DNA of 31,243 bases from a virus. Lineage: Duplodnaviria > Heunggongvirae > Uroviricota > Caudoviricetes. The stretch lies in IMG/VR virus record IMGVR_UViG_2585427771_000003, positions 1-31,243 of that record; one strand, 5' to 3'. The translations under genes were made by a program, and so were the position numbers. Shown one piece after another: positions 1 to 26,889 of the stretch (its first letter is position 1; each line of letters opens with the position of its first letter). The notes under the pieces were generated by a model that saw nothing but the letters and a program-made list of their open reading frames with translations, was not told the DNA's origin and did no database searches.

Positions 1-1143
1 CTATGCTGTTTTGATATCTACGATAATCCAGTCTTTACCACGATCATCATTGTATCGGTCGGTCATTTTTCTGGATTTATGACCTAACAACTTTTGCGTA
101 TCCAGACCCTGTTCCCGATATAACCGTTCTGACAGAGATCGCTGCTCATGAAATGTGGGCGCAGTTCCTGGCTCCCATTTTATGCCACATTTTTCCCTGG
201 CCTTTTTAAAAGCCGTTGTAAGAGTATTTGCAGAAACCTGGTCTCCTCTGTTTGCTTGAGAGGTAGTGTGACGGTAATGGACCAGATATTTACTAACAAC
301 AGCATCCCTGCACTGAGATATAACTTCACGAAGGGTAATATTCAGAGCATCGCATTTCAGGCTAAGCGGAATAGCAAGTTTTGAACCGGTTTTTTCCTGA
401 GTAATGTGCAACATGTCGTCCCATATATCAGAGAATTTCAAATTGCAGATATCGCCTAAACGTTGTCCAGTAACAAGAGCAAGTAGCATGCCGCATTTTA
501 AATAGGGCTGCCGTCTGCTTACGCTTTCAAATATTGCCTGCCATTCGGGCAGTGATAATCTTTGGCGGTTTACTCGATTTCGCGGTTGTTTTGTTGCCTG
601 CGCTGGGTTAAATCCTGGCGGAACATGTCCTGCGTGTTGTGCTTCTTTGAAGACGTCGATCAACACCATTCTCACGACTTGCGCCATCCTGTTATGACCT
701 TCAGCCTTTACAGCATCAATTATTTCGGCAATATCAAGTGCGGTAATATCCTTGAGGTGTTGCATTCCACAATGCTCACGGAAAAGACGAATGGGTTTAC
801 CTTTTTGCCGATAGGAGTTGGGTTTTAGTTCATTATGTTGCAGCCTGTCCTCCTGGATAGAAATATATTTATCAAGCCATTCTGTCACCGTAATGTCTGA
901 ACGCCTGCCTTTCATTCTTTCTAGACGCTCATTGACGCTTAATATTTGTCGGGTACGTTGTTCAGCAATAATGGTATTTGCTTCAGTAGCAACTTGTTTT
1001 GCTTCATTCTCATCAGTTCCTAAGCTATGAAAACGACCGGATAGTGGATGTTTGTATTGCCAATATACCTTTCCGGTTCGCTTATCTAATTTGCAATATA
1101 AATTGGGTATAGAGATTTTGTGAGATCGGGGTCTAGCAGCCAT
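1..1143 (-). CDS. int: Tyrosine integrase, lambda Int family (380 aa)
   Basis: Complete ORF on the - strand ending at window position 1. The N-terminus (RSHKISIPNLYCKLDKRTGKVYW) resembles the lambda Int arm-binding segment, and the C-terminus carries HEQRSLSERLY and LLGHKS...RY motifs matching the lambda Int catalytic region. Its 5' end is overlapped by the excisionase gene, as in lambda. Confidence 0.9.
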   Translation of the reverse strand: MAARPRSHKISIPNLYCKLDKRTGKVYWQYKHPLSGRFHSLGTDENEAKQVATEANTIIAEQRTRQILSVNERLERMKGRRSDITVTEWLDKYISIQEDRLQHNELKPNSYRQKGKPIRLFREHCGMQHLKDITALDIAEIIDAVKAEGHNRMAQVVRMVLIDVFKEAQHAGHVPPGFNPAQATKQPRNRVNRQRLSLPEWQAIFESVSRRQPYLKCGMLLALVTGQRLGDICNLKFSDIWDDMLHITQEKTGSKLAIPLSLKCDALNITLREVISQCRDAVVSKYLVHYRHTTSQANRGDQVSANTLTTAFKKAREKCGIKWEPGTAPTFHEQRSLSERLYREQGLDTQKLLGHKSRKMTDRYNDDRGKDWIIVDIKTA

Positions 1144-1369
1144 CAGCGATTATCCGTTGGAGTTTTGGGTTTGCGTTTATTGGGAGTTGCGGTTCTGCAA
1201 GCGTTCCTACAAAACGGGAATTTCGGTCAATCATCCAGTAGCGACCAACTTTTATAGCGGGTGGGGCCATCATTTTCCCTTGCGCGTATTTTTTCAGAAC
1301 TCGCTCACTTGGTGCTAAGTCCCCAAATTCTTCTTTAGCCCAGTCCTGTAAAGTGATTAGTCGAGACAT
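1133..1369 (-). CDS. xis: Excisionase-like protein (78 aa from internal ATG)
   Basis: ORF 1133..1432 on the - strand. The ATG at 1367-1369 is preceded by a GGAGG Shine-Dalgarno (reverse complement of 1371-1380) and gives MSRLITLQDWAKEEF..., a small basic protein. It overlaps the int start by 11 nt, the typical xis-int arrangement. Confidence 0.7.
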   Translation of the reverse strand: MSRLITLQDWAKEEFGDLAPSERVLKKYAQGKMMAPPAIKVGRYWMIDRNSRFVGTLAEPQLPINANPKLQRIIADGC

Positions 1370-1507
1370 TTGTCCTCCTCTTACTGCTGAGGGAGTTTGT
1401 GACCGATATATCTGACATGATATTAAGCTCATGGCAGGTACATCTCTTGACTGGTCATAGAGATAAATTTAATGCTGAGAAATGCAGTATTGAATTTATC
1501 AATTTTT

Positions 1508-1747
1508 CTATTTCCTGCGTATGGCACGTAACTTCTTAATGTGTTCTGCTGTATCGATCTCTTCGGCTATCCGATCTGCATCAGCTTTATTCACAGGTTC
1601 AAAGTCATGATTAAAGCGGAACATGCTGGCGATACATGTTCTGCCTTTTTGGATGTAGTGAACTTTGTTGTGGGTAGAACGCAGGATTTTGCAGGGAGTG
1701 CCGTGGTGGTCGACGTACCAGGTGTTAGGAAAAATGATTCTGAACAT
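1508..1747 (-). CDS. Hypothetical early-left protein (79 aa)
   Basis: ORF with ATG at 1745-1747 preceded by a GAGGTG Shine-Dalgarno; sits between xis and the TraR-like gene in the same leftward operon. No family recognised. Confidence 0.5.
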   Translation of the reverse strand: MFRIIFPNTWYVDHHGTPCKILRSTHNKVHYIQKGRTCIASMFRFNHDFEPVNKADADRIAEEIDTAEHIKKLRAIRRK

Positions 1748-1794
1748 TTTTACACCTCAGTTGGACGATGTTGAAATTTGCTGCTTTGAGGCCA

Positions 1795-2013
1795 TTACAA
1801 TCCCCATTGTTTGTTCTTAAGTTCGATCTCCTCCTGGCAACTTGCACAAGTCCGACAACCCTGAACGGCCAGGCGTCTTCGCTCATCTATGGGATCGCCA
1901 CACTCACAACAATGAGTGGCAGATATAGCCTGGTGGTTCAGGCGGCGCATTTTTATTGCTGTGTTGCGCTGTAATTCTTCAATTTCTGATGCTGAATCAA
2001 TGATGTCTGCCAT
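1795..2013 (-). CDS. TraR/DksA-family C4 zinc-finger protein (lambda Orf73-like, 72 aa)
   Basis: Translation contains CCECGDPIDERRR...CRTCASCQ, the four-cysteine pattern of TraR/DksA zinc fingers. Position between xis and exo matches the lambda TraR homologue. Confidence 0.75.
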   Translation of the reverse strand: MADIIDSASEIEELQRNTAIKMRRLNHQAISATHCCECGDPIDERRRLAVQGCRTCASCQEEIELKNKQWGL

Positions 2014-2111
2014 CTTCCATTAATCCCTGAATTGTTGGTTAATACGCTTGAGGGTGAATGCGAATAATAGAAAAGGAGCCTGTAGCTCCCTGATGATTTT
2101 GCTTTTCATGT

Positions 2112-2327
2112 TCACCGTTCCTTAAAAACGCCGTTTAACATGCCGATCGCTAGGCTTAAATGAGTCGGTGTGAATCCCATCAGCGTTACCGTTTCGCGGT
2201 GCTTCTTCAGTACGCTACGGCAAATGTCATCGACGTTTTTATCCGGAAACTGCTGTCTGGCTTTTTTGATTTCACAATTAGCCTGACGGGCAATGCTGCG
2301 AAGGGCGTTATTATGTTCTATTGTCAT
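2112..2327 (-). CDS. Hypothetical small protein (71 aa), homologue of a small ORF in the lambda xis-exo interval
   Basis: Internal ATG at 2325-2327 with an upstream GAGG; translation MTIEHNNALRSIARQANCEIKKARQQFPDKNVDDICRSVLKKHRETVTLMGF.... The longer 117-aa reading in the ORF track would overlap the upstream gene and is less likely. Confidence 0.55.
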   Translation of the reverse strand: MTIEHNNALRSIARQANCEIKKARQQFPDKNVDDICRSVLKKHRETVTLMGFTPTHLSLAIGMLNGVFKER

Positions 2328-2334
2328 ATTGGCC

Positions 2335-3087
2335 TCACACTTCGAATGCCAACTGAGGGGTAAAGACGTCCCGTTCAGCGTTGTAATTAAGTGAACTGGC
2401 ACTGTTGAATGATTCAATGCGTTCCACAAGAACTTGCGTACGGGTTTCTTTACTTGCGGGAGCATATGGCGAACCTACCCAGGATTTGTCGATGCCTATA
2501 TTTCTTGCGACGTTCGTGCTGTCTGCAGACGAAAGCGGTACATGAGTAAAAATGTCTTTATTTAACATCCGTAACCCATGAATCTTGGTGATTGGGTAGC
2601 CGTACTGATCTACAACATGACGTATAAGATCGCGTAGTTTAGCCCGACACGCTCTCGGTCGTTTTGCATCGTATCCCCCCATCGAGCCGATGCAGACGCG
2701 GGGAAACTCATGGCACAGACGAATAAATCGCTCATCTGGTTCGTTCATGTGCCACACCGGAGCACCAATAAATTTACCGTGAGGCCATGCCGCAATCAGG
2801 GCGTCATTCTCTTCACTGGTTCCGCCGATAACATCCGGGATAACCGCGAATGAGAAACGAGGGTGATTACCCCAGCGTTCAACAAATCTGTAATATTCAT
2901 TCCAGTCTACGGCCTTGTTTTTTGTCCAGAATGTGAATGCACCATTATCAAGAGCAAATGATTGGGTGACTTCGGAAGCCAGATCAATCTGAGCTGGATT
3001 AGCAAAACTGATGAATGCGTGTCTGCCTTTCCAGGCTTTCAACGCACAGGTATCGGGAGTTATTGGACCACCGTGAAAATGAATCAT
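2335..3087 (-). CDS. TGT-like / DpdA-like TIM-barrel protein (candidate DNA-guanine transglycosylase, 250 aa)
   Basis: Motifs read from the translation align with remembered signature segments of bacterial tRNA-guanine transglycosylase: AFISFAN (cf. IILGNT), LDNGAF (cf. TDSGGF), VIPD (cf. IFDE), CIGSMGG (cf. AVGGL), SSADSTNVARNIG (cf. PTRNARNG). There is no CxCxxC...H zinc-binding tail. The ATG at 3085-3087 is preceded by GGGAGAG. The gene lies immediately upstream of exo in the same operon. Confidence 0.5.
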   Translation of the reverse strand: MIHFHGGPITPDTCALKAWKGRHAFISFANPAQIDLASEVTQSFALDNGAFTFWTKNKAVDWNEYYRFVERWGNHPRFSFAVIPDVIGGTSEENDALIAAWPHGKFIGAPVWHMNEPDERFIRLCHEFPRVCIGSMGGYDAKRPRACRAKLRDLIRHVVDQYGYPITKIHGLRMLNKDIFTHVPLSSADSTNVARNIGIDKSWVGSPYAPASKETRTQVLVERIESFNSASSLNYNAERDVFTPQLAFEV

Positions 3088-3238
3088 ACACTCTCCCGTT
3101 TATTATTTATCTCCTCAGCCAGTCGCTGGGCTTTCAGCGGATTTCGGATAACAGAAGGCCCGGGAAATACCCAGCCTCGCTTTGTAACGGAGTAGACGAA
3201 AGTGATCGCACCTACCCGGATATTATCGTGAGGATGCT

Positions 3239-3919
3239 TCATCGCCATTGCTCCCCAAATACAAAACCAATTTCAGCCAGTGCCTCGTCCATTTTTTCGA
3301 TGAACTCCGGCACCATCTCGTCAAAACTCGCCATGTACTTTTCATCCCGCTCAACCACGACATAATGCAGTCCTTCACGCTTCATACGCGGGTCATAGTT
3401 GGCAAAGTACCAGGCATCTTTTCGCGTCACCCACATGCTGTACTGCACCTGGGCCATGTAAGCTGACTTTATGGCCTCGAAACCACCGAGCCGGAACTTC
3501 ATGAAATCCCGGGAGGTAAACGGGCATTTCAGTTCAAGGCCGTTGCCGTCACTGCATAAACCATCTGGAGAGCAGGCGGTACGCATACTTTCGTCGCGAT
3601 AGATGATCGGTGATTCAGTAACATTCACGCCGGAAGTGAACTCAAACAGGGCTCTGGCGTCGTTCTCGTACTGTTTTCCCCAGGCCAGCGCTTTAGCGTT
3701 AACTTCCGGAGCCACACCGGTGCAAACCTCAGCAAGCAGGGTGTGGAAGTAGGACATTTTCATGTCAGGCCACTTTTTTCCGGAGCGGGGTTTTGCTATT
3801 ACGTTATGAACTTCTGAAGCTGTGATGACGCCGAGCCGTAATTTGTGCCACGCATCATCCCCCTGTTCGACAGCTCTCACGTCGATCCCGGTACGCTGCA
3901 GGATAATGTCCGGTGTCAT
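3239..3919 (-). CDS. exo: Lambda exonuclease (Red-alpha, 226 aa)
   Basis: Translation [44 protein letters not shown]... is essentially the lambda Exo sequence as I remember it. Confidence 0.97.
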
Positions 3920-4701
3920 GCTGCCACCTTCTGCTCTGCGGCTTTCTGTTTCAGGAATCCAAGAGCTTTTACTGCTTCGGCCTGTGTCAGTTCTGACGAT
4001 GCGCGAATGTCGCGGCGAAATATCTGGGAACAGAGCGGCAATAAGTCGTCATCCCATGTTTTATCCAGGGCGATCAGCAGAGTGTTAATCTCCTGCATGC
4101 TTTCATCGTTAACCGGAGTGATGTCGCGTTCCGGCTGACGTTCTGCAGTGTATGCGGTATTTTCGACAATGCGCTCGGCTTCATCCTTGTCATAGATACC
4201 AGCAAATCCGAAGGCCAGACGGGCACACTGAATCATAGCTTTATGCCGTAACATTCGTTTGGGATGCGACTGCCACGGTCCCGTGATTTCTCTGCCTTCG
4301 CGGGTTTTGAATGGTTCGCGGCGGCATTCATCCATCCACTCGGTAACGCAGATCGGATGATTACGGTCCTTGCGGTAAATCCGGCATGTACATGATTCAT
4401 TGTCCTGCTCAAAGTCCATGCCATCAAACTGCTGGTTTTCATTAATGATGCGGGACCAGCCATCAACGCCCACCACAGGAACGATGCCGTTCTGCTTATC
4501 AGGGAAGGCGTAAATTTCTTTCGTCCACGGATTAAGGCCGTACTGGTTGGCGACGATCAGCAATGCGATGAACTGCGCATCGCTGGCATCACCTTTAAAT
4601 GCCGTCTGACGAAGAGTGGTGATCAGTTCCTGTGGGTCGACAGAATCCATGCCGACACGTTCAGCCAGCTTCCCGGCTAGCGTTGCGAGTGCTGTACTCA
4701 T
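3916..4701 (-). CDS. bet: Single-strand annealing protein Beta (Red-beta, 261 aa)
   Basis: Translation [66 protein letters not shown]... matches lambda Bet; its stop overlaps the exo start. Confidence 0.97.
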
Positions 4702-4706
4702 CCGTT

Positions 4707-5003
4707 TTATACCTCTGAATCAATATCAACATGGTGGTGAGCAATGGTTTCAACCATGTACCGGATGTGTTCTGCCATGCGCTCCTGAAACTCAACATCG
4801 TCATCAAACGCACGGGTAATGGCTTTTTTGCTGGCCCCGCAGCGTTGCAAATGATCGATGCAGAGTGATTCAAACAGGTGCTGTGGAAGACCTTTTTCCA
4901 TGTCGTCTGCCAGTTCTGCCTCTTTCTCTTCACGGGCGATCTGCTGGTAGTGACGCGCCCAGCTTTGAGCCTCAAGACGATCCTGAATGTAATAAGCGTT
5001 CAT
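4707..5003 (-). CDS. gam: Gam RecBCD inhibitor, short form (GamS-like, 98 aa)
   Basis: Translation [54 protein letters not shown]... matches lambda Gam from Met41 onward. Upstream in frame the sequence reads ...FRSSA but reaches a TAA with no ATG, so the long GamL N-terminal extension is not encoded. Confidence 0.9.
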
Positions 5004-5078
5004 GGCTGAACTCCTGAAAATGGCTGTGAAAATATCGCCCGCGAAATGCCGGGCTGATTAGGAAAACAGGAAAGGGGA

Positions 5079-5489
5079 TTAGTGATTCAGGCCGTTGCCG
5101 CGCCCGTCGAGAAAAACTTCCACGAGCAAATCACGGGTATAAGTGCGCTCGATGCCGCGATGCAGATAAAGCCGTCCGCGTAAATTAGCTGATGCAGTCC
5201 AGGTACCATCTTTGTGTTTGACCAGCATTCCTGGCATGACCGCACCTCGATTAACGGTCTGCGTTCCGTAATGTTGATGAACCATAAAAACTCCTGCCCG
5301 TAAGCTGGGCTGCTGAACATATAGAGACTTCTGCGCGTATTCAGGCGGTGGATGGCCGCCGGTTGTCATAACTAAGCCGCCTCGTTGAAACGACTGAGGT
5401 ATGAAGTGTTGAGTTGATTTCAGCTGGTCACACCGACGTTCACGCGTCCGCTTCACCCCTCGCACTTCCCGAAGCCTGCTGAAATTCAA
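5079..5489 (-). CDS. Hypothetical basic protein in the N position; possible N-like antiterminator with an arginine-rich N-terminus
   Basis: First ORF downstream of the presumptive pL. The longest reading starts at a TTG (5487-5489) and gives ...[17 protein letters not shown]..., reminiscent of the arginine-rich motifs of lambda and P22 N proteins. An alternative ATG at 5367-5369 would give a 96-aa product lacking that motif. Start codon and function are uncertain. Confidence 0.3.
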
Positions 5490-5732: not shown

Positions 5733-5761
5733 ATAAAAGAAAACCCGGCACGGTGGCCGGG
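5733..5761 (-). terminator. Rho-independent terminator downstream of the rex-position gene
   Basis: Hairpin CCCGGC-ACGGTG-GCCGGG at 5744-5761, followed on the - strand by a T-rich tract (reverse complement of taaaagaaaa). It starts 6 nt after the stop of the 5767..6720 gene and resembles the terminator that follows rexB in lambda. Confidence 0.7.
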
Positions 5762-5766
5762 TATCT

Positions 5767-6720
5767 TTATTCGAATGGAAGATCTATTTGCCTTTGAGGA
5801 TTCAACTGTTTTTTTACATGCTCAATTTCGAATATGGTTTTTATGGCATCTCCGATCATATATTGAGTTACTTTTAAATCTACAAGTAACATATCACCTT
5901 TAGAAAAATTTAAGGTGTTGTTATCAATATCGCTGATGAATTTCTGGTCTTTTATTTCAGCCAAAAAGCTACTGGCACCATCAGAAAACCGCCACCGGCT
6001 TCCTTCATTGAAGGAAATATTTTTAATTTGAAGGGCTTTCTCTACTGTGTACTCTGAAATTATTGATTCTGCTGGTAGATTGACTTTGAAATAATGTGCT
6101 TCTTGCTTGTTGATCGTCATGAATGTCAAACCATCATCGACAGTAGAGGCAAAGCTGTCAATGCCTTCCTGCTCTAATGGCTTACTTATAACTTCTTGTA
6201 ATGAAGAGCGAAGTTTAATATTTTTATAAAGTTCAATAACGTTACTGTCGTAGATCTCGCTTTCGTCATCAACAAAGACTTCGATGTTGCTATCAGGCAA
6301 ATTGTGTAATTTTTTTATTTTCCTTGGACCTATCCATTTTATCAGTTGAATTAGGCCTTTGCATATTTTTTCTTTAGAACCAGGACAGAGTCCAATAAAA
6401 GCAATCAAATTCGCAGCGGCTGTTGCTGAATCGCCGGATAAAAAATCAACAGCCTGTTTGAACCAAGATGTAGATGAGGCAACCAGATCTATTCCAAATG
6501 AGCCAGCTTTAAATGATGCATTGACTTTTACAGAAACAACAGTCTTGTTTCCGTAGAGAGTTTTACCGGCTTCCTCTAATGCATCTGATAGTGATAGAAG
6601 GGCAGGAGCAAGGTCTCGCACGTTCATTTCATGCGTTTCCAGTGCCGGACCGTCGTATACTATCCTGAACTTCATATCATTGGTTTCCGAATTGTTGCCC
6701 GCATCCATTATGGCATTCAC
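5767..6720 (-). CDS. Unknown 313-317 aa protein in the rexAB position (candidate superinfection-exclusion or anti-phage defence gene)
   Basis: Long ORF directly downstream of cI on the same strand, separated by about 60 nt and closed by a terminator. The DNA is visibly AT-rich compared with the flanking lambda-like genes. Start is ambiguous: GTG at 6720, ATG at 6708 (preceded by AGGTG), or ATG at 6675. No transmembrane segment or recognisable catalytic motif, and no resemblance to RexA or RexB. Confidence 0.6.
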   Translation of the reverse strand: MNAIMDAGNNSETNDMKFRIVYDGPALETHEMNVRDLAPALLSLSDALEEAGKTLYGNKTVVSVKVNASFKAGSFGIDLVASSTSWFKQAVDFLSGDSATAAANLIAFIGLCPGSKEKICKGLIQLIKWIGPRKIKKLHNLPDSNIEVFVDDESEIYDSNVIELYKNIKLRSSLQEVISKPLEQEGIDSFASTVDDGLTFMTINKQEAHYFKVNLPAESIISEYTVEKALQIKNISFNEGSRWRFSDGASSFLAEIKDQKFISDIDNNTLNFSKGDMLLVDLKVTQYMIGDAIKTIFEIEHVKKQLNPQRQIDLPFE

Positions 6721-10495: not shown

Positions 10496-10828
10496 ATGAA
10501 TCCTTATATTTATCTTGGTGGTGCAATACTTGCAGAGGTCATTGGTACAACCTTAATGAAGTTTTCAGAAGGTTTTACACGGTTATGGCCATCTGTTGGT
10601 ACAATTATTTGTTATTGTGCATCATTCTGGTTATTAGCTCAGACGCTGGCTTATATTCCTACAGGGATTGCTTATGCTATCTGGTCAGGAGTCGGTATTG
10701 TCCTGATTAGCTTACTATCATGGGGATTTTTCGGCCAACGGTTGGACCTGCCAGCCATTATAGGCATGATGTTGATTTGTGCCGGTGTGTTGGTTATTAA
10801 TTTATTGTCACGAAGCACACCACATTAA
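10496..10828 (+). CDS. emrE: SMR-family multidrug efflux transporter EmrE (110 aa)
   Basis: From the internal ATG at 10496: MNPYIYLGGAILAEVIGTTLMKFSEGFTRLWPSVGTIICYCASFWLLAQTLAYIPTGIAYAIWSGVGIVLISLLSWGFFGQRLDL..., matching E. coli EmrE, which is a known DLP12 prophage cargo gene. Confidence 0.93.
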   Translation: MNPYIYLGGAILAEVIGTTLMKFSEGFTRLWPSVGTIICYCASFWLLAQTLAYIPTGIAYAIWSGVGIVLISLLSWGFFGQRLDLPAIIGMMLICAGVLVINLLSRSTPH

Positions 10829-11083
10829 AAATAATTTGTTTTTAAACGACTAAAATATGGAGGCTCGTATATTTATATGGGCCTCGTTTTATGCTTTTTG
10901 TTAATGTCTTTAGTTTTTATTCATTCTTTTGTGCTTTCAAGATTATGGTGTAAGAAAATTGCAATGCGATTATTGTTGTATATTCAAAATAATGTGACCT
11001 TAATTGTCTTTTTAAATAAAAATTAAACAAAAATCATATCTCACCACTAAGGTTTATAAAAGCATACTTTAGCAGGTGTCACC

Positions 11084-12610
11084 ATGAAAAAAGCCATAGC
11101 ATATATGCGATTTTCATCACCAGGTCAGATGTCTGGTGATTCATTAAACCGCCAGAGAAGGCTTATTACTGAATGGCTAAAGGTAAATAGTGATTATTAC
11201 CTTGATACCGTAACGTATGAAGATTTGGGGTTAAGCGCATTCAATGGAAAGCATGCACAATCAGGAGCTTTTTCGGAATTTTTAGATGCTATAGAACATG
11301 GTTATATATTGCCAGGGACTACATTGTTAGTTGAAAGTCTGGACAGACTTTCAAGAGAAAAAGTCGGTGAAGCGATTGAGCGTCTGAAATTGATTTTGAA
11401 TCACGGTATTGATGTTATAACTCTTTGCGATAATACAGTCTATAATATTGACTCATTGAATGAGCCATATTCATTAATAAAAGCCATACTTATAGCACAA
11501 AGGGCAAATGAAGAAAGCGAGATAAAGTCAAGTCGGGTTAAATTATCATGGAAGAAAAAACGGCAGGATGCACTGGAGTCAGGCACGATTATGACGGCTT
11601 CTTGTCCGAGATGGCTCTCATTGGATGACAAAAGAACGGCTTTTGTTCCAGACCCCGACAGGGTGAAAACTATTGAGCTAATTTTTAAACTCAGGATGGA
11701 AAGGCGCTCATTGAATGCAATAGCCAAGTATTTAAATGATCATGCTGTAAAGAATTTCTCAGGAAAAGAAAGTGCATGGGGACCTTCTGTAATTGAAAAA
11801 TTATTAGCGAATAAAGCTCTGATAGGTATATGCGTACCTTCATATCGTGCAAGAGGGAAAGGGATAAGTGAAATCGCTGGCTATTATCCCAGAGTCATAT
11901 CAGATGATTTGTTTTACGCTGTACAGGAAATTCGGTTGGCACCTTTTGGTATTAGCAATAGTAGCAAGAATCCTATGCTAATAAATCTACTTCGAACAGT
12001 TATGAAGTGTGAGGCTTGTGGTAATACCATGATTGTTCATGCGGTATCTGGAAGTTTGCATGGCTATTATGTTTGTCCGATGAGAAGATTACATCGATGT
12101 GACAGACCATCAATAAAAAGAGATTTGGTTGATTATAATATCATTAATGAATTGCTTTTTAATTGTAGCAAAATTCAACCAGTTGAAAACAAGAAAGATG
12201 CTAATGAAACTTTAGAGTTAAAAATTATTGAGCTTCAGATGAAAATTAATAATTTAATCGTTGCATTGTCTGTCGCGCCTGAAGTTACCGCTATAGCAGA
12301 GAAAATAAGACTATTAGATAAGGAATTACGAAGGGCTTCGGTATCATTAAAAACTTTGAAGAGTAAAGGGGTGAGTTCACTTGGTGATTTTCATGCTATT
12401 GATTTAACCAGTAAAAATGGGCGAGAGCTATGTCGTACACTTGCCTATAAAATATTCGAAAAAATTATAATTAATACAGATAATAAAACCTGTGATATCT
12501 ATTTTATGAATGGCATTGTTTTTAAACACTATCCTTTAATGAAAGTAATATCCGCCCAGCAGGCGATAAGTACTCTTAAATATATGGTTGATGGTGAGAT
12601 TTATTTTTGA
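11084..12610 (+). CDS. ybcK: Large serine recombinase, YbcK-like (508 aa)
   Basis: N-terminal resolvase-type catalytic region with the serine in AYMRFSSPGQ, and a long C-terminal extension. Visibly AT-rich. Same position as ybcK in DLP12. Confidence 0.85.
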   Translation: MKKAIAYMRFSSPGQMSGDSLNRQRRLITEWLKVNSDYYLDTVTYEDLGLSAFNGKHAQSGAFSEFLDAIEHGYILPGTTLLVESLDRLSREKVGEAIERLKLILNHGIDVITLCDNTVYNIDSLNEPYSLIKAILIAQRANEESEIKSSRVKLSWKKKRQDALESGTIMTASCPRWLSLDDKRTAFVPDPDRVKTIELIFKLRMERRSLNAIAKYLNDHAVKNFSGKESAWGPSVIEKLLANKALIGICVPSYRARGKGISEIAGYYPRVISDDLFYAVQEIRLAPFGISNSSKNPMLINLLRTVMKCEACGNTMIVHAVSGSLHGYYVCPMRRLHRCDRPSIKRDLVDYNIINELLFNCSKIQPVENKKDANETLELKIIELQMKINNLIVALSVAPEVTAIAEKIRLLDKELRRASVSLKTLKSKGVSSLGDFHAIDLTSKNGRELCRTLAYKIFEKIIINTDNKTCDIYFMNGIVFKHYPLMKVISAQQAISTLKYMVDGEIYF

Positions 12611-12933: not shown

Positions 12934-12960
12934 TAGCCCGCATAAGTGCGGGCTGCTTTT
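12934..12960. terminator. Hairpin terminator between the convergent ybcK and esterase genes
   Basis: Stem AGCCCGCA / TGCGGGCT with loop TAAG, followed on the + strand by GCTTTTT. The T-run abuts the esterase stop codon. Likely terminates ybcK transcription and may act in both directions. Confidence 0.5.
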
Positions 12961-14003
12961 TACAGGTCAGCGTTTGTTTTTTGTTGTTGGGTAGCGGTTT
13001 TTATGGGGGTTCCCAGGTTTTTAGTAAACCACTCAACAACTCTGTTTATAATAATTGGCTGATACCATGTATTATCGCCATGCTCAGCCCCTTCTACCAG
13101 AACGTACTCAGCGTTATCGCCGTTCTTCTTCAACATCCTGAATAGTTTGGCGCTTTGCTCAGGTGAAACCAGAGTGTCTTTGCTACCATGCATAATAAGA
13201 AATGGGGGTTTTACTCCTTTCATATGTCCGATTGGACTGGCGTTTAGCGCTTTTTCTTTTGACGCTGTTATGGGGGCTCCCGCAAAACTTCTGAATGCAG
13301 GGCCATTGATCATTAAGGCTTCGGTTACGGCAGGAGATCGATGAACCTCCTGCACTGATTCAGGGAACCCCTCGCCAATATTCAACAAGTCAGAAATCCC
13401 ATAAAGTGTGGCAACTGCCTGAACATCTGCTGATTGCTGAAGAAAGTCACCTTTATTAAAGGTTTTGTCACCATTTGTAGTTCCCATCATCTGGGCAAGC
13501 CATCCACCGGCAGAGTCACCCAGAACTCCGATTCTTTGAGGATCAATCCCATAATCGCTGGCATGTTCTCTCAAGTAACGTATTGCAGCTTTCCCATCCT
13601 CAACTGGTGCTGGAAATGTATCAGGAATTGTTCTGTATTCTACAGCGGCCACAACAAAACCAGCTTCAGCCAGAGCCATTCTCATTTCAATAAATTTGTC
13701 ATGTTCAGAAGACATGAATCCGCCGCCGGGATAATAAATAATGGCTGGTCTTAAATCATTTGTTCGCGGGACAAGAACTGACATGTGAAGCTGTCTGACA
13801 GAACGAGTTCCTTTTATCTGGGAATAAACAACATCACCAATGAGATCGACCTGGTTTCTGGTGGGTGAAACACTAATGATATCTGCACCCGGGGTGTAAC
13901 CAGGAAGATTAGTCTGGACAGGTGTTGCACAACTCCCGACCGACATGGCCATTGACATACCATACAATAGTGTTGCAGATGATAATATCTTGTTAATTTT
14001 CAT
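12960..14003 (-). CDS. Secreted alpha/beta-hydrolase esterase or lipase, probable lipoprotein (347 aa)
   Basis: N-terminal signal peptide with a lipobox-like MSVGSC; GDSAGG nucleophile elbow (G-x-S-x-G) and a downstream HGSKD segment typical of the alpha/beta-hydrolase fold. Lies where DLP12 of E. coli K-12 carries ybcL and ybcM. Confidence 0.7.
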   Translation of the reverse strand: MKINKILSSATLLYGMSMAMSVGSCATPVQTNLPGYTPGADIISVSPTRNQVDLIGDVVYSQIKGTRSVRQLHMSVLVPRTNDLRPAIIYYPGGGFMSSEHDKFIEMRMALAEAGFVVAAVEYRTIPDTFPAPVEDGKAAIRYLREHASDYGIDPQRIGVLGDSAGGWLAQMMGTTNGDKTFNKGDFLQQSADVQAVATLYGISDLLNIGEGFPESVQEVHRSPAVTEALMINGPAFRSFAGAPITASKEKALNASPIGHMKGVKPPFLIMHGSKDTLVSPEQSAKLFRMLKKNGDNAEYVLVEGAEHGDNTWYQPIIINRVVEWFTKNLGTPIKTATQQQKTNADL

Positions 14004-16512: not shown

Positions 16513-17595
16513 TTAGAACTGATAAACCAGACCTACAGCGACGATGTCGTCGGTATCAATACCAGCTGTTTTGGTAAACTTACTATCGTCAATTAAGTTG
16601 ATTTTGTAATCAACAAAAGTGGACATGTTTTTATTAAAGTAGTAAGTAGCACCGACATCGACATACTTGACTAAGTCTCGGTCACCATGAACACCAAGGT
16701 CTTTACCTTTTGACTGAAGGTAAGCAACAGATGGTCGCAGACCGAAGTCAAACTGATATTGTGCTACTGCTTCAAAGTTTTGTGCTTTGTTTGCAATATG
16801 GTTATTACCAAAAACGGTCATATTCTGAGTTTCAGAATATGTGGTAGCCAGATAGATATTGTTCGCATCATATTTCAGGCCTGCAGCCCATACTTCCGCA
16901 TTTTTGCCGGAGGCATTGAATTTGCTCTTACCATAGGCGACCTGACCGTCAGTGCGATCTGATTTAGCATAGGTTGCACCCACGCCGAATCCTTCATACT
17001 CATAAGTAGTGGAGAAACCGAAACCATCACCATTGGCTTCAGTTACGTCAGTGCGGTCATTTTTACCCTGATACTGAGCAGCAAAGTTCAGGCCATCGAC
17101 CAGACCAAAGAAGTCGTTGTTACGATAAGTTGCAACACCAGTAGTGCGACCAGTCATGAACACATCTGTTTGGGTCCAGGTATCACCACCGAATTCTGGC
17201 AGGACGTCAGTCCACGCACCGATGTCGTATGCTACACCGTAGTTACGGCCGTAATCGATTGAGCCGTAATCACCAAATTTCAGGCCTGCAAATGCAAGAC
17301 GGGTTTTGTCTTTGGAAGAACCTTGAGATTCAGCACGGTTGCCTTTGAATTCATATTCCCACTGACCGAAACCAGTCAGTTGATCGTTGATTTGGGTTTC
17401 ACCTTTGAAGCCAAGACGGGCATAAGTAGTATCACCATCATCTGCATCATTAGAGGAAAAGTAGTGCTTGGCATTAACTTTCCCGTATAGATCCAGCTTG
17501 TTACTGTCTTTATTATAAATTTCAGCTGCCTGAGCAGACATCGCCATCAGTACTGATGCAGCTACAGCAGAAATTGCCACTGTTAATTTTTTCAT
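16513..17595 (-). CDS. nmpC: OmpC-family outer-membrane porin, NmpC/Lc-like, apparently intact (360 aa)
   Basis: Signal peptide [23 protein letters not shown] followed by [19 protein letters not shown], with aromatic/glycine-rich beta-strand character and a C-terminal ...VGLVYQF typical of general porins. On the - strand between Q and the lysis genes, as in DLP12 and PA-2. Confidence 0.85.
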
Positions 17596-19478: not shown

Positions 19479-19772
19479 TTATTGTGAGCAATAGACACGC
19501 GCTTCCAGCGGAGTATAAATGCCTAAAGTAATAAAACCGAGCAATCCATTTACGAATGTTTGCTGGGTTTCTGTTTTAACAACATTTTCTGCGCCGCCAC
19601 AAATTTTGGCTGCATCAACAGTTTTCTCCTGTCCAATTCCCGAAACGAAGAAATGATGGGTGATGGTTTCCTTTGGTGTTACTGCTGTCGGTTTGTTTCC
19701 AACAGTAAACGTCTGTTGAGCACATCCTGTAATAAGCATTGCCAGAGCGGCAGAAAACAACATTTTTTTCAT
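19479..19772 (-). CDS. borD: Bor serum-resistance lipoprotein (97 aa)
   Basis: From the ATG at 19770-19772: MKKMLFSAALAMLITGCAQQTFTVGNKPTAVTPKETITHHFFVSGIGQEKTVDAAKICGG... with lipobox ITGC; matches lambda Bor. Confidence 0.9.
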   Translation of the reverse strand: MKKMLFSAALAMLITGCAQQTFTVGNKPTAVTPKETITHHFFVSGIGQEKTVDAAKICGGAENVVKTETQQTFVNGLLGFITLGIYTPLEARVYCSQ

Positions 19773-20250
19773 CTTATTATCCTGCATTGTTAAAAACGGC
19801 AGAATCCTATGTGACAACAATTAAACGATAGTTAAATGGATTGATGAAAATTAAAACTATATAGGTGGATGCTCAGCCTATTGGAGGAGGGAGGCACTCA
19901 GAATCCTGTGGAATGAAATAAACCGCTCTATCTGTCCATTACCCTTTTAGCTGCGCTGTATCGTCGCCGTATTCCCGCATTAACCATGACCGTAGCCCGA
20001 CGGGGAATTCCTTCTGCGTGAGTGTGCGGGAATAATCAAAAACGATGCACACCGGGTTTTTACCGCGTTTATGGTTCGCGGGGGGGGGGCCCTCATGCTC
20101 GCCAGTCCTGTGCGGGGGTGGAAGAAACAGGACGTGTATTCAGGTCTGTGTGACTGTGGTCGCAAGACTTTTGTCGTTCAGCTATTAAATCCCATTACGA
20201 AGTAGACCAGAACTGCCAACGGGTCCTTTCCGGCGATCCGACAGGTTACG

Positions 20251-20985: not shown

Positions 20986-23154
<2,169 letters not shown>

Positions 23155-23491: not shown

Positions 23492-26889
<3,398 letters not shown>

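Follow-up and report, generated by a model that had tools for sequence, protein, structure and literature searches.

Between the recombination genes and the xis/int end of a lambdoid prophage lies an open reading frame of 250 codons, which raises two questions: whether it encodes a DNA-guanine transglycosylase of the DpdA type, and where such an enzyme would obtain its base. The window analysed here covers positions 1 to 31,243 of IMG/VR record IMGVR_UViG_2585427771_000003; it holds a lambdoid prophage, inserted beside icd, that is 99.9% identical to prophages of ExPEC and commensal strains, for example MS20658, UPEC132 and NC101. In the ORF listing the dpdA-like reading frame runs from ATG to stop at 2335..3087 on the minus strand, and direct reading of the sequence places a Shine-Dalgarno element, GGGAGAG, 5' of the start codon at 3091..3097 (-). 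The original prediction had described a gene of this length and position, with four quoted motifs resembling those of tRNA-guanine transglycosylase (TGT), and had proposed a phage DpdA enzyme. Both gene and motifs are present as it described them.

The family assignment is carried by significant matches to phage DpdA proteins, as that prediction had anticipated. At E=6e-99 the product falls in PHROG 887 (phrog_887, 'queuine tRNA-ribosyltransferase'). A profile of 54 diverse family members aligned by hhalign with the DpdA of phage CAjan over residues 23-195 with 98.8% probability (E=7.7e-17), pairing LDNGAF of the window family with LDSGAF, VWH with CFH, KIHGL with KLHAF and SADST with SCDSS of CAjan, and BLASTP against CAjan DpdA gave E=2e-5. 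A tblastn search recovered the DpdA of MED16, a Pantoea phage, at 38% identity (E=8e-37) and that of the Salmonella phage 7-11 at 36% (E=2e-27), and weakly reached mycobacteriophage DpdAs adjoining GTP cyclohydrolase. As judged by these matches the product is a member of the phage DpdA family, in the singleton subgroup of DpdA1 in its broad sense. The family comprises 6,182 clusters at 90% identity (E<=1e-3) and, at 50% identity, 911 representatives. The window gene shares only 70-76% of its nucleotides with homologues whose proteins are 85-91% identical to its product, with dN of 0.07-0.16 and saturated synonymous sites; in these pairwise comparisons the values indicate strong purifying selection on dpdA. 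Several 'UNVERIFIED' phage records of the collection (OR850331.1, OR844993.1, OR846599.1 and the MT83xxxx series) look bacterial or mis-assigned: a 1.7-kb 'Staphylococcus phage' entry encodes a 67.6% homologue of this enterobacterial gene, and others hold ordinary bacterial tgt genes.

The expected profile matches to both TGT and DpdA were borne out in part, for phage DpdA but not for canonical TGT models. Searches of Pfam, NCBIfam and PDB sequences with the single protein returned no match, and PDB profile searches with 54- and 7-sequence alignments returned only spurious matches, for example to GCN4 and to designed repeat proteins. When all 54 family members were scanned against Pfam and PADLOC, no TGT, DpdA or Cap10 model was matched, and PADLOC gave no match of any kind for them. 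The family profile did not match E. coli Tgt alone by hhalign, nor an 8-sequence bacterial TGT profile assembled from tgt genes in phage-collection records. Because the validated CAjan DpdA, used as positive control, also failed against that profile, its negative result says nothing on membership. Canonical TGT, bacterial DpdA (bDpdA) and Cap10 models therefore do not detect the product by sequence, and the link to TGT itself rests on fold, motifs and the intermediate DpdA sequences. Identity with the Pfam TGT family (PF01702) was ruled out, there being neither a family-model match nor a zinc motif.

The motifs of the product are AFISFAN (residues 24-30), LDNGAF (46-51), CIGSMGG (132-138) and SSADSTNVARNIG (186-198). 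The four TGT motifs that had been set beside them for comparison are all found in E. coli Tgt, as IILGNT (53-58), TDSGGF (88-93), AVGGL (211-215) and PTRNARNG (268-275), and the product shares with Tgt the spacing D-x5-R-N after the last aspartate (DSTNVARN here, DCVMPTRN in Tgt). The zinc-binding tail is indeed missing: the product has no CxCxxC motif and its only cysteines are at positions 14, 125, 132 and 147, whereas E. coli Tgt carries CDCYTC at 302. Structure prediction had been suggested as a check for a TIM barrel and catalytic aspartates; a barrel and candidate catalytic aspartates were found. The AlphaFold2 (AF2) model (mean pLDDT 79.7, pTM 0.79, with low confidence after residue 190, in the C-terminal 60 residues) has eight beta strands alternating with helices in the manner of a TGT-type (beta/alpha)8 barrel, and the aspartates of LDNGAF and SSADST are invariant. 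A BFVD search gave 28 viral matches with E of 1e-3 or lower, and many of these bear the name queuine tRNA-ribosyltransferase.

Two alignments were used for the active site, one of 54 diverse homologues and one that includes CAjan DpdA. D47, H170, D189 and S190 are invariant in the first, down to 31% identity, and D85, H113 and G134 are conserved there in at least 90%; all of these residues are common to CAjan DpdA. All of them also sit at the C-terminal ends of barrel strands in the AF2 model. In bDpdA, D95 acts as general acid/base, D130 and H181 recognise the base and D256 is the nucleophile (Gedara et al. 2023, PMC10164549), and probable counterparts of these four residues are present in the product. 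We place D47 of LDNGAF (codon 2947..2949, minus strand), at the end of strand 43-47, as the putative general acid/base and, from its motif and PMC10164549, as the probable counterpart of bDpdA D95 and of the aspartate in Tgt TDSGGF. D85 of IPDV (codon 2833..2835, minus strand), after strand 78-82 and invariant in the alignment with CAjan, is the proposed base-recognition aspartate and counterpart of bDpdA D130. H113 of VWH (codon 2749..2751, minus strand) lies at the end of strand 5, is likewise invariant in the alignment with CAjan and aligns there with CFH. D189 of SSADSTNVARN (codon 2521..2523, minus strand), at the end of strand 187-190 and invariant in both alignments, is the proposed nucleophile and counterpart of bDpdA D256 and E. 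coli Tgt D264. H170 of KIHGL (codon 2578..2580, minus strand), also invariant in both, stands 19 residues before D189, and this pair resembles, and may be equivalent to, the H226/D248 pair described for Cap10 (bioRxiv 10.1101/2025.04.06.647259). The one-to-one mapping to bDpdA residues follows motif and residue order rather than coordinate superposition, and is to be read as provisional.

Comparison with characterised systems narrows the identity further. CAjan DpdA shares the homologous core, with the positions of D47, D85, H113, H170 and D189 kept, and has no zinc motif either; it differs in being 306 aa long with a longer, different C-terminus, and identity is only ~20%. The nearest relatives with any chemical data are the DpdAs of MED16 and 7-11, which are 36-38% identical over ~78% of the length and are likewise singletons needing host precursor; these phages differ from the present one in being lytic, and their genes in genome context and C-terminal regions. 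The bDpdA of the Salmonella Montevideo dpdA-K island (PDB 7UI4) has 413 aa against 250 aa here, with a CXCX2CX22H zinc site, a large helical insertion, Ins8, and a requirement for the DpdB ATPase (PMC10164549). Identity as a bacterial DpdA was ruled out, since the product has no zinc site and no Ins8 and the prophage has no ParB-like DpdB. Cap10 of type IV CBASS (PDB 9NTN), which binds a CD-NTase at its deazaguanine-modified N-terminus and acts together with Cap9 (bioRxiv 10.1101/2025.04.06.647259), resembles the product in fold only, at 10% sequence identity. It too was rejected as an identity, the prophage having no Cap9 QueC-like gene and no gene for a CD-NTase with a glycine-rich N-terminus, and the family having no PADLOC match.

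These comparisons bear on whether DNA is the substrate at all. An active TGT-fold enzyme could instead work on host or phage tRNA, or on a protein-attached deazaguanine as is thought for Cap10 in type IV CBASS. The name queuine tRNA-ribosyltransferase is an automatic annotation transfer, and the zinc subdomain and the insertions with which TGT holds tRNA are missing. The prophage offers neither a Cap9/QueC-like gene nor a CD-NTase, the family has no PADLOC match, and sequence comparison detects no relatives other than phage DpdAs that are tied to DNA modification. We regard a substrate other than DNA as very unlikely.

The operon setting indicates when a DpdA-type enzyme would be made. On the minus strand, PGAP annotation of the prophage gives the order gam, bet, exo, DUF1317, dpdA-like gene, 71-aa gene, DksA/TraR zinc-finger gene, DUF4222, xis and int. 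The original prediction had placed the gene upstream of exo; by transcription (gam, bet, exo, DUF1317, dpdA) it lies downstream. The exo, bet and gam genes, at 3239..5003 (-) as annotated by PGAP in an identical prophage, are upstream genes of the same early-left transcription unit, and the intervening gene of 54 aa at 3084..3248 (-) matches DUF1317 (Pfam PF07026, E=1.5e-32). Its stop codon overlaps the dpdA start codon as ATGA in the sequence, an overlap that implies likely co-translation in one operon. A consensus scan of the minus strand from 5800 to 1400 revealed no sigma-70-like promoter. Since dpdA has no promoter of its own and shares overlapping stop and start codons with DUF1317, it is assigned to the early-left (pL) transcript. 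The 71-aa gene 3' of dpdA (2112..2327, minus strand, from PGAP and phage 4A7 gene calls) has no assigned function and no Pfam or PADLOC match, and it is a variable neighbour, found beside dpdA in only 22 of 81 loci. A longer ORF of 117 aa at 2112-2465 (-), annotated in phage SfI as gp33 and overlapping the last 131 nt of dpdA, was dropped in its favour, as PGAP and the 4A7 annotation start the gene at 2327, which is the more likely reading. The first ~8 codons of the 71-aa gene differ between phages with and without dpdA because the boundary of the dpdA cassette falls inside them.

The flanking DNA had been likened to the lambda xis-exo interval, which needs correcting at one end: the int/xis end of the window is of the phage 21 type, which integrates at icd, and not lambda's own. 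The further statement that the gene is not part of lambda is confirmed by related phages. Megablast of window positions 1-5100 finds ~98% identity, outside dpdA, with phages 4A7, 21 and Perceval and some 20 more. By megablast, the 4A7 annotation and pairwise alignment, a mosaic cassette of ~0.8 kb at roughly 2302..3094 stands where these otherwise 98%-identical phages have ~0.3 kb with a DUF1382 gene. As read from these alignments, the exchange of dpdA for DUF1382 is ordinary lambdoid mosaicism. Effectively the same gene occurs in SfI (99.5% nucleotide and 99.6% amino acid identity), after exo and DUF1317 in the same slot between recombination genes and xis/int; SfI differs in being a serotype-converting phage with gtr genes, whereas the window is an icd lambdoid prophage with a 12.2-kb structural deletion. 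P22-like phage BTP1 carries a homologue of 67% amino acid identity in the equivalent early-left slot, adjoining an Erf/Abc recombination module, and HK106 one of 37% amino acid identity in the equivalent slot between recombination genes and xis/int. Among 5,426 complete E. coli genomes, 100 hold the dpdA gene at >=99% identity, under the PGAP label 'hypothetical protein'.

The window copy of the prophage, a point that the original prediction had missed, is damaged. Relative to the intact copy of MS20658 it is short of 12,236 bp between the portal gene and the tail assembly genes, with a junction at 23151-23154 marked by GGTT microhomology, and the deletion takes out the genes for portal, protease, capsid, tail tube and tape measure. 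The loss of 1 bp at window position 25942 frameshifts gpJ, leaving ORFs at 23495-25960 and 26077-26889 in place of one 1131-aa gene. On this reading of the sequence the copy is defective and cannot make virions, and because it is defective, the dpdA of this genome could not serve virion DNA without a helper phage. A further 1-bp deletion relative to MS20658, at 1384 just upstream of the annotated xis start, lengthens the xis-frame ORF to 99 aa (1133-1432), the PGAP excisionase gene being 237 nt. The right half of the prophage holds DLP12-like cargo at 10497-10829, 11084-12610, 12960-14003 (-), 16513-17595 (-) and 19479-19773 (-), which includes emrE, the ybcK recombinase gene, genes for a BD-FAE alpha/beta hydrolase (PF20434, E=3.4e-44) and an OmpC-type porin, and iss, a serum-survival lipoprotein gene. 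An ORF of 317 aa at 5767-6720 (-) comes right after the cI-like repressor, where lambda has rexAB. It has no Pfam domain and falls in PDC-S42, a candidate defence family of PADLOC (E=3.4e-86); a hairpin resembling a bidirectional terminator follows it at 5743-5762, and the ORF is probably a defence gene expressed in the lysogen.

The source of the base was sought next to the gene. The claim that the window contains no preQ0 genes agrees with both PGAP annotation and tblastn with CAjan proteins. In the intact prophage copy PGAP annotates no folE, queD, queE, queC, queF or transporter gene, and tblastn queries with CAjan FolE, QueD, QueC, QueE and YhhQ, DMCA QueD and the Pam5 VUT protein found no match in the window. 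In 80 IMG/VR loci, taken as those with homologues at >=65% identity, the same queries had no match up to 10 kb from the gene. With no preQ0 genes in the prophage or in the 80 related loci, any activity must draw on host precursor. The window gene is not linked to genes of 7-deazaguanine synthesis or uptake, an absence that defines the published 'DpdA-only' group. Nor does dpdA have a fixed partner gene: the 71-aa gene, DUF1317, exo, the DksA-like gene and DUF4222 each accompany it in only 18-37 of 81 loci. Two homologues of 39-42% identity, in temperate-type phages of distant hosts, have more telling neighbours. That of Caulobacter phage DMCA (L008, 5705-6726) directly follows a short QueD-like gene of 98 aa, and that of Pseudanabaena phage Pam5 (L009, 4989-6468) is two genes from a transporter of the VUT/YhhQ family; these neighbours are partial modules of precursor supply or uptake and not a full preQ0 pathway.

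Such neighbours speak to the direction of the reaction. The TGT mechanism begins with base excision via a covalent intermediate (PMC10164549), so that the product might act as a DNA guanine glycosylase or base-exchange enzyme that does not protect its own DNA and instead attacks incoming deazaguanine phage DNA or interferes with a host defence. Defence genes are common cargo of temperate phages, the PDC-S42 candidate is 2.7 kb away, and there are defence glycosylases that attack DNA containing deazaguanine. Yet the homologues beside QueD and a precursor transporter point to insertion of a base rather than its removal, dpdA has no PADLOC match, and its place in a lytic early-left operon, with no promoter of its own, is not the layout for expression in a lysogen. 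A role in excision, defence or anti-defence is, in our estimate, highly improbable.

A DpdA that inserts bases from host precursor has precedents of differing effect. Neither phage 9g, CAjan nor the window has a DpdB partner, and 9g DpdA works alone: expressed in E. coli it introduced dPreQ0 into plasmids (790 per 10^6 nt), so that precursor from the host suffices. Deletion of dpdA in CAjan abolishes dPreQ0 (PMC6884629); there, dpdA belongs to a folE-queD-queC-queE-transporter cluster and ~32% of guanines are replaced, whereas the window gene is a singleton of a temperate phage. Among phages with DpdA only, 7-11 carries dADG at about 0.02% and MED16 at about 0.13% of guanines, the level in MED16 barely affected the restriction enzymes tested, and the singleton phage Orion, whose host is without the pathway, had no modification.

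The low levels in these phages, together with the unmodified Orion and the loss of portal-to-tail genes and the gpJ frameshift in the window copy, would suit an intact and conserved gene without real effect in E. coli, where free preQ0 might be too scarce, the DNA left essentially unmodified and dpdA no more than neutral cargo of a defective prophage. QueF competes for preQ0 in E. coli. Against a gene of no consequence stand the strong purifying selection across about 6,000 homologues, the recurrence of the gene at an unchanged place in the operon of phages whose recombination modules are unrelated, and the modification of DNA in E. coli by 9g DpdA alone from host preQ0. We consider absence of effect unlikely.

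The analysis shows that the product belongs to the phage DpdA family and has a TGT-type TIM-barrel fold and the conserved residues of the active site, and that its gene is a singleton in the early-left operon under strong purifying selection. With somewhat better than even confidence, we read the product as a compact enzyme without a zinc site that would carry out sparse deazaguanine exchange in DNA from host precursor. To judge from the layout, it would be made as a delayed-early pL product with the Red genes after prophage induction or infection. By homology, D189 would attack C1' of a target deoxyguanosine in double-stranded DNA and displace guanine, with D47 as general acid/base; D85 and the conserved histidines would hold the incoming 7-deazaguanine base, and the free base would resolve the covalent intermediate, as in the double-displacement route of TGT. 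Since the prophage and its close relatives are without folE, queD, queE and queC, the base would come from the host queuosine pathway, most likely as preQ0 and possibly ending as ADG. The modification would be sparse and probably motif-specific, at well under 1% of guanines and not a bulk replacement, and its likely benefit would be to shield replicating phage DNA in part against restriction or other defences that target DNA.

The identification as DpdA is correct but was already known, which the original prediction did not recognise. SfI gp34 (YP_009147480), which RefSeq names queuine tRNA-ribosyltransferase, was catalogued in 2019 in Supplementary Data 1 of Hutinet et al. (PMC6884629) as a DpdA of a phage without preQ0 or G+ genes. 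The same authors noted that members of their gamma-proteobacterial 'singleton DpdA' cluster might have diverged in function and that the role of the cluster 'will require more studies' (PMC6884629). Our literature search found no paper on a lambdoid DpdA, and the BTP1 transcriptome paper contains nothing on its dpdA homologue.

For the gene now labelled 'hypothetical' by PGAP in ~100 complete E. coli genomes, DpdA-family DNA-guanine transglycosylase is a better name and one backed by published work. We put forward more tentatively, and as somewhat short of an even chance, that lambdoid and P22-like phages of Enterobacteria may bear an undocumented, sparse and motif-specific 7-deazaguanine mark in their DNA, installed from host queuosine precursor by a stand-alone DpdA that is made only during lytic growth and measurably altering sensitivity to restriction or DNA-sensing defences. 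Phages so marked may include SfI, BTP1, some Stx1a phages and the ExPEC prophage family described here. Should the enzyme prove active, temperate phages that serve as models, among them relatives of lambda, P22 and the Stx phages, would carry a so-far unmeasured DNA modification that draws on the queuosine pathway of the host, with a bearing on how these phages cross restriction barriers, on the behaviour of their DNA in nanopore and SMRT sequencing, and on defences that sense deazaguanine.
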